Shown here: piece by piece, positions 1 to 12,568 of the stretch | Position numbering within the stretch: position 1 is the first letter of the stretch | Layout of the letters: the number at the start of each line of letters is the position of its first letter | NCBI RefSeq assembly: GCF_003334815.1 | Contig: NZ_QOWO01000035.1 | Length of the DNA stretch: 39,681 nucleotides | Strand: one strand, 5' to 3' | From: Escherichia coli | Lineage (GTDB): Bacteria; Pseudomonadota; Gammaproteobacteria; Enterobacterales; Enterobacteriaceae | Notes under the pieces: model-generated | What the model was told of the DNA's origin: nothing | Seen by the model: the letters and a program-made list of their open reading frames with translations, nothing else | Databases searched by the model: none | Translations under genes and position numbers: made by a program

Positions 1-102
1 GCTGAACTGTTGCTGGAAGACTACAAAGCCTCCCTGAAATATCTCAGCGATCACCCGAAACTGCAGGGTATTGCCCAGCAGAACAGCTTTAAACACACCT
101 GA
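1..102 (+). CDS. gadA: Glutamate decarboxylase A, C-terminal 33 codons plus stop (partial, 5' end outside window)
   Basis: In-frame translation from base 1 gives [33 protein letters not shown], which I recognise as the GadA C-terminus; followed by gadX as in the gadA-gadX locus. Confidence 0.85.
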
Positions 103-121
103 TAACATAACGTTGTAAAAA

Positions 122-169
122 CCGAATGCCCAGCCTTTAAAAAAACAGCTGGGCATTCGGTTGCTTATT
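122..169 (+). terminator. Rho-independent terminator of gadA
   Basis: 13-bp perfect stem ccgaatgcccagc / gctgggcattcgg (122-134 / 148-160) around an A-rich loop, followed by ttgcttatt. Confidence 0.8.
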
Positions 170-471
170 AATCGCAATAATATATTGGCTGTCTATTCAT
201 CGTGTTGATAAGATATATGTTATATGAATGTTTATTAAATGTAGCGATTACCTTTAATATCACGAAAAGGGATTATTTGCTTACTATTAATTTCCCTGCG
301 TTCTTAAACACGTTTTTGTATTATAAATCCAGTCATCCTGCCCGTAGAACATCACACATTATCATCCTGTTCTCCCGCTTCGTTTAAATTTATTTATCAA
401 TCAATTTGACTTAAGAGGGCGGCGTGCTACATTAATAAACAGTAATATGTTTATGTAATATTAAGTCAACT

Positions 472-1296
472 ATGCAATCACTACATGGGAATTGTCTAAT
501 TGCGTATGCAAGACATAAATATATTCTCACCATGGTTAATGGTGAATATCGCTATTTTAATGGCGGTGACCTGGTTTTTGCGGATGCAAGCCAAATTCGA
601 GTAGATAAGTGTGTTGAAAATTTTGTATTCGTGTCAAGGGACACGCTTTCATTATTTCTCCCGATGCTCAAGGAGGAGGCATTAAATCTTCATGCACATA
701 AAAAAGTTTCTTCATTACTCGTTCATCACTGTAGTAGAGATATTCCTGTTTTTCAGGAAGTTGCGCAACTATCGCAGAATAAGAATCTTCGCTATGCAGA
801 AATGCTACGTAAAAGAGCATTAATCTTTGCGTTGTTATCTGTTTTTCTTGAGGATGAGCACTTTATACCGCTGCTTCTGAACGTTTTACAACCGAACATG
901 CGAACACGAGTTTGTACGGTTATCAATAATAATATCGCCCATGAGTGGACACTAGCCCGAATCGCCAGCGAGCTGTTGATGAGTCCAAGTCTGTTAAAGA
1001 AAAAATTGCGCGAAGAAGAGACATCATATTCACAGTTGCTTACTGAGTGTAGAATGCAACGTGCTTTGCAACTTATTGTTATACAGGGTTTTTCAATTAA
1101 GCGAGTTGCAGTATCCTGTGGATATCACAGCGTGTCGTATTTCATTTACGTCTTTCGAAATTATTATGGGATGACGCCCACAGAGTATCAGGAGCGATCG
1201 GCGCAGAGATTGTCGAACCGTGACTCGGCGGCAAGTATTGTTGCGCAAGGGAATTTTTACGGCACTGACCGTTCTGCGGAAGGAATAAGATTATAG
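472..1296 (+). CDS. gadX: AraC-family acid-resistance transcriptional activator GadX
   Basis: 274-aa ORF; sequence recognised as GadX; C-terminal AraC-type HTH region (…GYHSVSYFIYVFRNYYGMTP…). Confidence 0.95.
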   Translation: MQSLHGNCLIAYARHKYILTMVNGEYRYFNGGDLVFADASQIRVDKCVENFVFVSRDTLSLFLPMLKEEALNLHAHKKVSSLLVHHCSRDIPVFQEVAQLSQNKNLRYAEMLRKRALIFALLSVFLEDEHFIPLLLNVLQPNMRTRVCTVINNNIAHEWTLARIASELLMSPSLLKKKLREEETSYSQLLTECRMQRALQLIVIQGFSIKRVAVSCGYHSVSYFIYVFRNYYGMTPTEYQERSAQRLSNRDSAASIVAQGNFYGTDRSAEGIRL

Positions 1297-1312
1297 AGTT
1301 TTACTCAGACAT

Positions 1313-1418
1313 AAAAAAAACCCGGCATAGGGGACCGGGAAGAGGATAGTCTGCCGTCTCCAGACTAATAAACCGTTATAACACTCCCTGTTGGCACGGG
1401 AAACTTTGTGCTCTCAGT
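1313..1418 (-). ncRNA. gadY: GadY small RNA, antisense to the gadX 3' end
   Basis: Reverse complement of 1313-1418 reads actgagagcacaaagtttcccgtgccaacagggagtgttataacggtttattagtctggagacggcagactatcctcttcccggtcccctatgccggg + T8, matching my memory of GadY; ends in a cccgg/ccggg hairpin plus U-run. Confidence 0.88.
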
Positions 1419-1663
1419 AAGTTAAATATAACTTTTACTGGAAATAAGATCAGCCATTTTTTTATAAACATAAGCTATACGCTGTGCGAAAATATATTCG
1501 TGCTGCATTTACTTATTATCAATTAACTGTTATGCAAAACTACTTTGTGGATAAATTTTGGTCCTACCAAATCTGGCAGTTTTTGCGCTAAGAAACAGTC
1601 TGGCATCATTTCATTAGTATACTGAAATTGAAATAATCGCAGTATGAAATATAAGGGATAATC

Positions 1664-10332: not shown

Positions 10333-10372
10333 AGGAGTAGCAAGTTGAGCCATCTTGCTGCTCCTTTTTGCA
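10333..10372 (+). terminator. Rho-independent terminator of hdeAB
   Basis: 12-bp stem with one mismatch (aggagtagcaag / cttgctgctcct), then tttt gc attttt; ends 8 nt before the yhiD ATG. Confidence 0.7.
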
Positions 10373-10379
10373 TTTTTAT

Positions 10380-11027
10380 ATGACAGCAGAATTTATTATA
10401 CGTCTTATACTCGCGGCAATTGCCTGTGGCGCTATTGGCATGGAAAGGCAAATGCGCGGCAAAGGAGCAGGGTTACGCACACATGTATTAATTGGCATGG
10501 GAAGCGCCCTGTTTATGATTGTTTCGAAATATGGTTTTGCTGACGTGCTGTCTTTAGATCACGTCGGACTCGACCCCAGCCGTATTGCTGCTCAGGTGGT
10601 GACGGGCGTCGGGTTTATCGGTGCAGGTAACATTCTCGTTCGTAACCAAAATATTGTAGGTCTGACGACGGCAGCGGATATCTGGGTGACCGCCGCCATA
10701 GGTATGGTTATTGGCAGCGGTATGTACGAACTGGGTATTTATGGTTCAGTGATGACCTTGTTGGTGCTGGAAGTCTTCCATCAATTAACCTTCCGCCTGA
10801 TGAACAAAAATTACCATTTACAGCTGACATTAGTGAACGGTAATACGGTATCAATGCTCGACTGGTTTAAGCAGCAAAAAATAAAAACTGATTTAGTTTC
10901 GTTGCAGGAAAATGAAGATCATGAAGTGGTCGCCATTGATATCCAGCTTCATGCCACAACGTCGATAGAAGACCTGTTGCGATTATTAAAAGGTATGGCA
11001 GGGGTGAAAGGCGTTTCAATTAGCTAA
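10380..11027 (+). CDS. yhiD: MgtC/SapB-family inner-membrane protein YhiD
   Basis: ORF track start at 10368 is a TTG; the first ATG (10380) gives 215 aa MTAEFIIRLILAAIACGAIGMERQ…, an MgtC-like N-terminus; recognised as YhiD. Confidence 0.88.
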   Translation: MTAEFIIRLILAAIACGAIGMERQMRGKGAGLRTHVLIGMGSALFMIVSKYGFADVLSLDHVGLDPSRIAAQVVTGVGFIGAGNILVRNQNIVGLTTAADIWVTAAIGMVIGSGMYELGIYGSVMTLLVLEVFHQLTFRLMNKNYHLQLTLVNGNTVSMLDWFKQQKIKTDLVSLQENEDHEVVAIDIQLHATTSIEDLLRLLKGMAGVKGVSIS

Positions 11028-11068
11028 TCTGTGTGGCAGCGTAGCCAGACTCACCGTAAGCCTGAAAT

Positions 11069-11599
11069 TCACACCAGATAATCAATATGCTGATGGCGTA
11101 CCAGCTCATTGATCCGCTTAAGATTGAGGATCATCATGATATTGTGTTTATGGCAGTAGAACGTTTTTAGCGATATTTTCAGTTTCTCCAGAATATCTTC
11201 CGTTGTCATTTGATTCGCAATGCAGCTCAGAACCTGATGTTGCTTGCGCGAAAGTGACACAGCCGCTTCAGGCACAGAGCAGTAACTGCCATTGATGAGT
11301 GCGACAAAATCAATGATAGTGATAGTCCGCGGAACAAAGGTCACCGGCACTTTCCCCAGGCAGCGTTTAATATTAAAGGGGGAGAAAATAATGACATGGA
11401 CAGGTTTTAATCGTTCAATTTGAGTGAGAAAATTAGAATGAAATACATTATTCATTAATGTATCAATAATGACGAAGGCATTCTGATGCAACATTACGTC
11501 GATCTCTTCTTCGTTCTGTATATGAACGACATTACCTTTACTCAGAATGTTTTTCATCGCGGTGAAGAACATCGTATCCCTGGTAATTATAAGAAACAT
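11069..11599 (-). CDS. dctR: LuxR-family transcriptional regulator DctR (YhiF)
   Basis: 176-aa ORF, RBS aggag; C-terminal LuxR-type HTH; recognised as DctR. Confidence 0.94.
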   Translation of the reverse strand: MFLIITRDTMFFTAMKNILSKGNVVHIQNEEEIDVMLHQNAFVIIDTLMNNVFHSNFLTQIERLKPVHVIIFSPFNIKRCLGKVPVTFVPRTITIIDFVALINGSYCSVPEAAVSLSRKQHQVLSCIANQMTTEDILEKLKISLKTFYCHKHNIMMILNLKRINELVRHQHIDYLV

Positions 11600-11754
11600 A
11601 ACCGACTCCTGGTGCGGACATTAACTTTATAATCAGTTTGCCAAAGGTAATTAACAGGACAGGGCTTATAATAATAATAGTTAGCTTACTGTGTATTAAT
11701 TTGATGTAATGCATGATGCAGATGCTGAGAAAGCATCTGCATCTTTCGGTGGTG

Positions 11755-12321
11755 TTATTTGACCAGCTCAGGTGTTACCTGACTCACCGCATTGGTGTAG
11801 TAAGGCGCACCCCAGCCCGGTTCCGGCCAGAATGCACCATAGCCGTAATCCCACAGGTTATAGGTGGTATTAACCACTTCTCTCAAATGCCACACCTGGA
11901 TGCCCTGCATATTCACTTCCAGGAAGTTATACGGGACTTTATTGATAAAGCCAGGTTGTTCACCCTGAATGGTGCCGAGGATGGTAACAAAGTGATTACG
12001 ATAGTTCACTGGATCAAGGAAGCCGCTTTGTCTGGCGAGCAGTCGGCCCTGATAGTTGGCTTCAATATCAGGCTTCGCATAGCTATCCAACGGTAATACA
12101 GCGATTTCTAACAACGTATCCGTTTTGCCATTGATAACGTTGATAACCTTCCCACCAAAGCGCGCTTGTTGACCAACATATAACCCCGGCTGGTTATGAA
12201 CAGCAACAAAACTTTTTTGAATATCAGGTTGGTTATTGCCTTTGATATTTTGCGGAATTGAACTACATGCGGCAAGCAAAAATGAAAGGCTGAGGATGAG
12301 TGCACCTTTTGTCATGTTCAT
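11755..12321 (-). CDS. slp: Outer-membrane starvation lipoprotein Slp
   Basis: Internal ATG of the 199-aa ORF gives 188 aa MNMTKGALILSLSFLLAACSS (lipobox LAAC); RBS aagga 7 nt upstream. Confidence 0.9.
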   Translation of the reverse strand: MNMTKGALILSLSFLLAACSSIPQNIKGNNQPDIQKSFVAVHNQPGLYVGQQARFGGKVINVINGKTDTLLEIAVLPLDSYAKPDIEANYQGRLLARQSGFLDPVNYRNHFVTILGTIQGEQPGFINKVPYNFLEVNMQGIQVWHLREVVNTTYNLWDYGYGAFWPEPGWGAPYYTNAVSQVTPELVK

Positions 12322-12568
12322 GTTACTATCCTTATCAACAAATATTAAAACCATAATAGATATTTCTTTATAGTTTTCATCTGATTCTGAGGTGATATGC
12401 CTGATAGTAACGTAAACCTGTCTGATGTTTATATCCTTTCTGTTTAGGTGAACTCAGTTAATTTTGGGGCGTGACATGAATATCCATCACCCCATAATAT
12501 AGTGCATTGTTTTAAAAGTACATAAAATCTATTTTTATTCAATGATTATAAAGTGCTAATAATCAATA

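Follow-up and report, generated by a model that had tools for sequence, protein, structure and literature searches.

Gene content, base composition and genomic context of the acid fitness island at an Escherichia coli gor locus

The DNA analysed here, referred to as the window, is a stretch of 39,681 nucleotides of the Escherichia coli contig NZ_QOWO01000035.1 (assembly GCF_003334815.1). Positions 1 to 12354 of the window hold the acid fitness island (AFI) of E. coli in its short form, that is without the chu haem locus, with gadA as the only incomplete gene (Table 1). Confidence in this assignment is high, and it extends to the whole of the explanation favoured below, which comprises the identity of the AFI, its character as a compositional mosaic, the published silencing mechanism and its gain in the Escherichia lineage. 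Annotation was transferred to the window from the 100% identical genome NZ_CP144930 and checked against the open reading frames (ORFs) of the window. Several sequenced E. coli chromosomes match positions 1-14400 at 100% identity, and essentially all of the 5426 complete E. coli genomes match the AFI or parts of it.

Eleven AFI genes are complete and occur in the canonical order from slp to gadX, with full-length gadA following next in the identical genome. The window has the arsCBR genes and gor beyond slp and yhiS, and the identical genome has ccp and treF ahead of gadA, which is the canonical position of the AFI; beyond arsCBR come gor, rlmJ, prlC and more backbone genes. The initial annotation of this DNA had described the whole island as lying within the window and the interval from gadA to slp as contiguous. 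The order from gadX through slp agrees with that description, but gadA is cut by the window edge, which leaves its last 102 nt (34 codons), and its GAD box also falls off the window. Two pairs of paralogues occur inside the island, gadX/gadW with 33% and gadE/dctR with 24% identity. The gadE-mdtE spacer carries the small RNA (sRNA) ES205, which we take to be the same as GadF. Directly antisense to it, the Prokaryotic Genome Annotation Pipeline (PGAP) calls a 92-aa 'hypothetical protein' at 7110-7388 (+) that has no family match and is probably spurious. A gadEF operon and a GadF sRNA have been named at the gadE locus (bioRxiv 10.1101/2024.06.20.599902).

Table 1. Features of the acid fitness island and its surroundings, compositional segments of the window, and related cassettes. 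Positions refer to the window unless another locus is named; GC, G+C fraction; GC2 and GC3, GC at second and third codon positions.
Feature	Position	Strand	Remarks
gadA, 3' end, 102 nt (34 codons)	1-102	+	window position 1 is L001 6001; gadA at L001 4702-6102
gadA-gadX spacer with gadX promoter region, AT trough	103-471	+	GC 0.325; inside tract 79-630
gadX, AraC-family activator	472-1296	+	identical-genome annotation; GC 0.411, GC3 0.378
GadY sRNA, antisense to gadX-gadW spacer	1308-1421	-	Rfam RF00122, 150 bits, full length
gadW, AraC-family regulator	1664-2392	+	identical-genome annotation; GC 0.418
mdtF, RND efflux permease	2755-5868	-	GC 0.531, GC3 0.615, codon bias 0.160
mdtE, pump membrane fusion protein	5893-7050	-	GC 0.546; shorter PGAP start gives 5893-7002
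ES205 sRNA, gadE-mdtE spacer (gadE 3' region)	7200-7271	-	Rfam RF02754, 105 bits
gadE, LuxR-family central activator, most AT-rich gene of the island	7389-7916	-	GC 0.330, GC2 0.227
hdeD-gadE spacer, 798 bp, multi-promoter gadE control region	7917-8714	-	GC 0.361
hdeD, inner-membrane acid-resistance protein, moderately AT-rich	8715-9287	-	GC 0.466, GC3 0.545
Divergent hdeD/hdeA promoter spacer, AT trough	9288-9541		GC 0.331; inside tract 9222-9574
hdeA, periplasmic acid chaperone	9542-9874	+	GC 0.426
hdeB, periplasmic acid chaperone	9990-10316	+	GC 0.404
yhiD, MgtC/SapB-family membrane protein	10380-11027	+	GC 0.455
yhiD-dctR spacer, 41 bp, between convergent genes	11028-11068		chu site, empty here
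dctR (yhiF), LuxR-family, gadE paralogue	11069-11599	-	GC 0.397
slp, outer-membrane lipoprotein, last canonical AFI gene	11755-12321	-	promoter region to ~12438
yhiS module, variable, very AT-rich, outside canonical AFI	12439-14417	-	ORF 12569-13792, 407 aa, intact
arsC, arsB, arsR, within Escherichia-specific DNA between gor and ccp	14419-16553	-	native-like GC
gor, conserved backbone, right edge of Escherichia-specific insert	17430-18782	-	rlmJ-gor adjacency
Segment (gadX-gadW)	1-2821		GC 0.401
Segment (mdtFE)	2822-7362		GC 0.533
Segment (gadE and control region)	7363-8619		GC 0.339
Segment (hdeD to slp)	8620-12306		GC 0.429
Segment	12307-14337		GC 0.328
Segment (backbone, ars to yhiN)	14338-30178		GC 0.517
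Segment	30179-34335		GC 0.356
Segment	34336-39681		GC 0.560
C. amalonaticus cassette	L084 8485-20531
C. braakii cassette	L089 8504-20531
Kluyvera, Yokenella and Kosakonia cassettes	L085, L087, L088, about 7600-14800

In base composition the island is a mosaic and not a single uniform foreign block. Likelihood segmentation of the window, with splits kept at a log-likelihood ratio (LLR) above 15 nats, divides the island into four alternating segments (Table 1), which bears out the alternating AT-rich blocks that had been noticed initially. AT tracts, defined as stretches in which each 200-bp window has a GC below 0.33, total 2574 of 12354 bp in the island interval versus 203 of 15760 bp in the neighbouring backbone. 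These tracts (79-630, 1357-1669, 7378-8325, 9222-9574, 11358-11601 and 12191-14224) lie on promoter-bearing spacers or on the 5' ends of genes, and the lowest GC values coincide with the spacers that hold promoters (gadA-gadX, gadY-gadW, gadE-proximal, hdeD-hdeA and upstream of slp). As had been claimed, gadE, its upstream spacer and dctR are far more AT-rich than mdtEF, the ars genes (GC 0.51-0.54), gor (0.538) and prlC (0.547). The same had been said of hdeD, which is only mildly AT-rich, and the AT-rich DNA does not end at position 12354 but continues to 14418 through the slp-yhiS spacer (0.287), yhiS (0.338) and the yhiS-arsC spacer (0.355).

Native-like GC in the genes of an enzyme and a pump (gadA and mdtEF) alternates with AT-rich sequence in gadX, gadW, gadE, dctR and hdeAB, whose products are regulators or small proteins of the envelope or periplasm. 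Full-length gadA, as read from the identical genome, has a GC of 0.540 and a GC3 of 0.619. Codon usage was evaluated as Karlin-type bias against the window's own backbone genes; the measure is informative for long genes (mdtF, gadX, yhiS and yhiJ/L) and noisy for short ones, and it was not used for hdeA, hdeB and arsR. In composition and codon usage gadA and mdtF are indistinguishable from backbone genes such as gor, prlC, pitA and rbbA (codon bias 0.19-0.26), and gadX (0.684) and yhiS (0.692) are strongly atypical. The comparison of GC3 and codon bias likewise sets hdeAB and gadE apart. Also, the very low GC2 of gadE indicates that its AT bias lies partly at the protein level.

Silencing of the island by H-NS and its control by GadE, GadX and GadW have been established experimentally, and would hold for the copy described here. 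H-NS binds the gadE, gadW, slp-dctR and yhiM promoters and hdeABD (PMC2984483), and an extended occupancy domain dependent on H-NS/StpA spans hdeAB-yhiD, hdeD, arrS and gadEF, giving way to local regulators in permissive media (bioRxiv 10.1101/2024.06.20.599902). [quoted passage not shown] The hdeD-gadE spacer of the window measures exactly 798 bp, as published (PMC3708157); given the spread of the published starts, it is a multi-promoter control region and not the '800-bp leader' initially assigned to gadE. At the divergent hdeA/hdeD promoters, which GadE activates, GadE peaks have been mapped by chromatin immunoprecipitation with exonuclease digestion (ChIP-exo), together with RpoS occupancy (PMC4918353).

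The window contains AT-rich tracts of the kind that H-NS is known to prefer, the role of H-NS itself being taken from the K-12 literature. A scan with the published GadX/GadW motif, allowing up to three mismatches, recovered 9 matches versus 2.4 expected in the window. Among them are motif matches in the control regions of gadY-gadW (1438-1457, adjoining GadY), gadE (8502-8521) and slp (12418-12437). On the strength of the published experiments, H-NS and StpA would polymerise on these AT-rich promoters and hold the island silent while cells grow without stress, until activators that respond to particular signals (EvgA/YdeO, ArcA, RpoS and GadX/GadW) drive H-NS from the 798-bp control region of gadE. 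GadE, together with RcsB, would then activate hdeAB-yhiD, hdeD, gadA, gadE-mdtEF and slp-dctR, and the GadY sRNA would tune the expression of gadX and gadW. Control is not through GadE alone; GadX/GadW, several other regulators and GadY take part in it too.

The chromosomal site of the island was compared across 80 species-representative loci anchored on Gor (76 of them non-Escherichia), each flanked on either side by no more than 10 kb, onto which all window proteins as well as gadA, ccp, treF and yhjB were mapped. This comparison covers the gor locus only and not the remainder of the 76 genomes. Downstream of gor (up to 10 kb), none of the 76 non-Escherichia loci contains an AFI or ars gene, the sole matches in these loci being distant, family-level ones to AraC, RND and LuxR proteins. 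Salmonella, which the initial annotation had singled out as lacking the island, is represented by S. enterica subsp. arizonae, whose gor locus indeed has no AFI, and the wider set of loci extends this result. The conserved gene order is pitA-uspB-uspA-(dtpB)-rsmJ-prlC-rlmJ-gor, followed by a variable gap and then (ccp)-treF-yhjB; the adjacency of rlmJ and gor is kept in nearly all of the 80 loci that are long enough to show rlmJ. Several Enterobacter loci, Citrobacter sp. R56 and Trabulsiella have about 190-280 bp between gor and treF, and three loci of Citrobacter (C. sedlakii, C. amalonaticus and Citrobacter sp. Awk 4) have 55-90 bp between gor and ccp; in S. enterica subsp. arizonae 5.6 kb of unrelated DNA separate gor and treF.

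The ancestral arrangement is therefore gor-(ccp)-treF, and the DNA of about 18.9 kb that the 3' ends of the convergent genes gor and ccp enclose is Escherichia-specific. In the identical genome this DNA has a heterogeneous composition, with an overall GC of 0.452 versus 0.517 in the backbone. Since no AFI or ars gene stands beside gor outside Escherichia, and since the gor-ccp junction of other Enterobacteriaceae holds little DNA, or DNA of quite another kind, the region was gained in the Escherichia lineage, and the horizontal acquisition proposed initially is supported by synteny. Acquisition has been placed after the split from E. fergusonii, with the slp-to-gadA families assigned to one branch by xenoGI (bioRxiv 10.1101/188599), and the Escherichia-only presence at gor agrees with this placement. 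The island sits at this junction together with yhiS, arsRBC and agrAB/dinQ, and the region has been remodelled in modules since its gain. The gor-treF junction is hypervariable in Enterobacteriaceae; its gap can be as short as about 190 bp and as long as about 9 kb or more, and its cargo is unrelated from genus to genus.

Several results weigh against the explanation presented so far. The GadE-box consensus derived from ChIP-exo is not enriched in the window (4 matches vs 2.4 expected), none of its matches falls at a known site, and the exact 20-bp GAD box occurs solely upstream of gadA (L001 4603-4622), outside the window, so that sequence scans are unable to show GadE control here; also, H-NS binding to this DNA rests on the K-12 literature. 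Neither gadA nor mdtEF has a foreign composition, which is at odds with the arrival of a single uniform foreign block. Among the usual marks of a mobile genomic island, a deviating composition is present, but no tRNA or tmRNA gene was found in the window by ARAGORN, the annotation from ccp to gor lists neither an integrase nor a transposase, and no direct repeats bracket the island, the sole sizeable ones being the agrA/agrB/dinQ copies. The route of acquisition is therefore not indicated by the sequence.

Related cassettes were recovered in other genera. Full-length homologues of GadE, with 43-52% identity, occur in Citrobacter, Kluyvera, Yokenella, Kosakonia and Pluralibacter, and the neighbourhoods of gadE' were inspected in five genomes, drawn from the first four genera listed. 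The cassette of C. amalonaticus and C. braakii consists of a bhsA-like gene, slp, gadE', crcB, mdtE', mdtF', hdeD' (on the opposite strand), hdeA' and hdeB', followed by amt and urease, and its products share with those of E. coli 50% (slp), 50-52% (gadE'), 63% (mdtE'), 77% (mdtF'), 53-54% (hdeD'), 75% (hdeA') and 61-65% identity (hdeB'). The gor locus of C. amalonaticus S646 is free of the cassette, which lies on a separate scaffold beside a P4-like element. In Kluyvera and Yokenella gadE', hdeD' and hdeA' lie within an adiA/adiY/adiC-like locus, the order being an adiA-like gene, gadE', hdeD', hdeA', a gene for an AraC-type regulator, an adiC-like gene and hdeB'; the genes of Kosakonia are arranged in the same way, except that neither hdeD nor hdeB is called there. 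A literature search, consisting of one full-text query, returned no description of such cassettes outside Escherichia, a faint hint of novelty.

Like the AFI, these cassettes alternate AT-rich regulator and chaperone genes with enzyme and transporter genes of normal GC; across the five genomes GC is 0.32-0.43 in gadE', 0.27-0.36 in the spacer upstream of hdeA and 0.54-0.56 in the decarboxylase and antiporter genes. They differ from it in that they occupy unrelated chromosomal sites and not gor, have urease or arginine-type decarboxylation in the place of gadA, and lack the gadX/gadW pair, dctR and yhiD. Comparison of the gadE and hdeD-hdeA spacers of E. coli with those of Citrobacter and Kluyvera disclosed no noncoding similarity apart from short matches at chance level. 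A recent origin of mdtEF as a duplicate of acrAB or acrEF within the species was considered and rejected, both proteins being nearer to the Citrobacter cassette pump: MdtF shares 77% identity with it versus 71% with AcrB and 70% with AcrF of E. coli, and MdtE 63% versus 54% and 50% with the acrAB and acrEF counterparts. The linkage of gadE and mdtEF is therefore either older than the arrangement in E. coli or of independent origin.

It is conceivable, although we hold the idea tentatively, that the core of the AFI is one diverged copy of an older cassette made up of slp-gadE-mdtEF and hdeD/hdeAB, which is combined with a host-specific partner and whose low GC is maintained. The partner may be whichever proton-consuming system the host possesses: Gad in Escherichia, urease in the two Citrobacter species C. 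amalonaticus and C. braakii, and a decarboxylase and antiporter of the arginine type in Kluyvera, Yokenella and Kosakonia. Both the cassettes and their base composition are observed, and the cassettes may share descent as a mobile unit and be kept AT-rich by selection. If so, low GC would be a maintained, silencer-dependent regulatory property and no sign of recent arrival.

The last part of this proposal can also be put on its own, as an alternative in which the low GC of the regulator and chaperone genes and of their promoters is maintained by selection and is not the fading footprint of a transfer. The forces invoked would be H-NS-dependent silencing, the AT-rich, curved DNA of promoters and an AT-biased protein composition. 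This is a reasonable possibility, if one that falls short of probable. The island or its parts are present in essentially all of the complete E. coli genomes and in other Escherichia species and it is therefore old, yet gadE still has a GC of 0.33; the bias of gadE is partly one of protein composition, and the same alternation recurs in the diverged cassettes of five other genomes, which fits AT-richness as a maintained feature of the regulator/chaperone core without proving it. However, the whole Citrobacter cassette, including mdtEF and urease, has a GC (0.39-0.48) below that typical of its genome, as would be expected from a shared AT-rich donor pool, and selection and ancestry are not separated by the present data. 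Also, maintenance by selection is compatible with horizontal acquisition and does not replace it.

The internal structure of the region was evaluated by aligning the window to four other Escherichia genomes, in which breakpoints fall at module edges (11032/11068, 12438, 12566-12683, 14402-14418 and 17264). Escherichia sp. MOD1-EC7003 (L003) is without window positions 12684-17263, where yhiS, ars and agrAB lie; the final 115 nt of yhiS are still there, and a deletion is suggested by this remnant. On the slp side, homology stops at 12438 both in E. albertii and in the divergent E. coli-like strain E69; it restarts at 14418 in E69, which is thus devoid of yhiS. In E. albertii about 1.8 kb of unaligned DNA follow position 12438, and no yhiS or ars gene was detected; in E. 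whittamii about 1.9 kb of unrelated DNA stand where yhiS is found in the window. The ars genes are absent from both MOD1-EC7003 and E. albertii.

The yhiS module (GC 0.29-0.36) is the most AT-rich DNA of the neighbourhood and continues the AT-rich tract of the island. Of 5426 E. coli genomes, 4324 cover at least 80% of its length, and the identity of the best match is mostly 80-100%; judging from these identities, the module has probably diverged more than the core DNA of E. coli. Searches of the YhiS and YhiJ/YhiL proteins gave no significant Pfam, NCBIfam or PADLOC family. Two Rfam matches to AgrB-family antisense RNAs, at 16704-16787 and at 16935-17018, lie in the arsR-gor spacer (16554-17429), as does dinQ (about 17294-17377), a type I toxin gene, and MOD1-EC7003 retains only the dinQ-proximal part of this spacer.

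A further break in homology occurs in other Escherichia species at the 41-bp spacer between yhiD and dctR. This spacer is contiguous in 3178 of 5421 complete E. coli genomes, and the remaining genomes, about 41%, break exactly there (at positions 331-369 of the query used). In the example inspected, NZ_AP046545, eight haem-uptake genes (chu/shu/hut) lie between yhiD and dctR; about 41% of the complete E. coli genomes carry the chu locus (~9 kb) at this spacer, its content having been seen in that one example, in agreement with the literature (10.1101/188599).

Such modularity suggests a second alternative, in which the site is a hotspot that received several independent insertions and the alternation in GC reflects modules of differing origin and age, namely the gadE/hde core, mdtEF, gadA-gadXW, dctR, yhiS, ars and agrAB/dinQ, with chu as a further one in some strains. 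That the gor-ccp junction is a hotspot, with different cargo in different genera, is observed. The coincidence of breakpoints with module edges, the precise insertion of chu, the variability of yhiS, the genus-specific cargo of the gor-treF junction and the native-like composition of gadA are all in favour of piecemeal assembly. Nevertheless, we regard it as a doubtful account of the island: in Citrobacter slp, gadE', mdtE'F', hdeD' and hdeA'B' are already together, so the pump had joined the AT-rich core earlier than Escherichia or outside it, and the two were not assembled piecemeal at the gor site, and xenoGI assigns the slp-to-gadA families to one branch (bioRxiv 10.1101/188599).

That the alternation is ordinary gene-to-gene scatter without meaning is extremely improbable, for although short backbone genes deviate too (uspB with GC 0.470 and codon bias 0.591, uspA with codon bias 0.453), long genes such as gadX and yhiS are atypical as well, and uniform composition or chance scatter is rejected by the LLR of every segment boundary and by the AT-tract counts.

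The favoured explanation, an AFI gained in the Escherichia lineage with a mosaic composition, agrees with what is described for related systems. The AFI of E. coli K-12 reportedly extends over about 15 kb from slp to gadA and comprises 12 genes (Hommais et al. 2004; Tramonti et al. 2008; Mates et al. 2007). The window has the same genes, order and relative orientation, GadY, the gadE control region of 798 bp and the ars/gor neighbourhood, and presumably represents the reverse complement of the K-12 map. It differs in the truncation of gadA at its edge and in the intact yhiS beside slp, a gene that we believe to be disrupted by IS5 in K-12. The long form of the island, in E. coli O157:H7, E. 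albertii and Shigella dysenteriae, is said to contain the chu/shu haem transport locus; flanking genes and yhiD-dctR junction are the same, and the window is without the ~9-kb, eight-gene chu insert. This chu-bearing form has been described by Wyckoff et al. (1998) and in the xenoGI preprint (10.1101/188599).

The AFI also resembles other H-NS-silenced islands, such as the Salmonella pathogenicity islands SPI-1 and SPI-2 and the locus of enterocyte effacement (LEE), in being AT-rich relative to the backbone, lineage-specific and, as known for the AFI from the literature, relieved of H-NS repression by island-encoded activators of the AraC or LuxR type. Unlike these islands, it has no tRNA, integrase or direct repeats at its edges, contains segments of native GC (mdtEF and gadA), and is near-universal in the species instead of strain-specific.

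The AFI is central to the survival of E. coli and Shigella in stomach acid, and after two decades of detailed study it serves as a standard model for xenogeneic silencing and counter-silencing, which its confirmation here does not alter. The feature is already known, and the initial annotation, largely right in composition and interpretation and in need of correction for gadA, hdeD, the end of the AT-rich DNA and the gadE leader, adds nothing new to it. There is a modest gain in the clear boundaries, with Escherichia-specific DNA filling the convergent gor/ccp junction and with yhiS, ars and chu as separate modules; in the view of the island as a compositional mosaic in place of a uniform foreign block; and in the cassettes of similar pattern from other genera, which can be used to ask if AT-richness is kept for regulation.

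Elsewhere in the window, a second AT-rich block (30179-34335, GC 0.356) holds two genes of the YhiJ/YhiL family and has no match to a defence system or other family. The first of these genes has a stop near 31861 in the window and is annotated as intact in NZ_CP144930. The block adjoins yhiM (29188-30240), which is described in the literature as an acid-resistance gene and a target of H-NS and GadE/RcsB, with H-NS at its promoter (PMC2984483). Finally, the uspB-pitA spacer contains at 25796-25836 (-) a marginal Rfam match to the ES036 (CssrF) sRNA, with 42 bits against a gathering threshold of 37.6.

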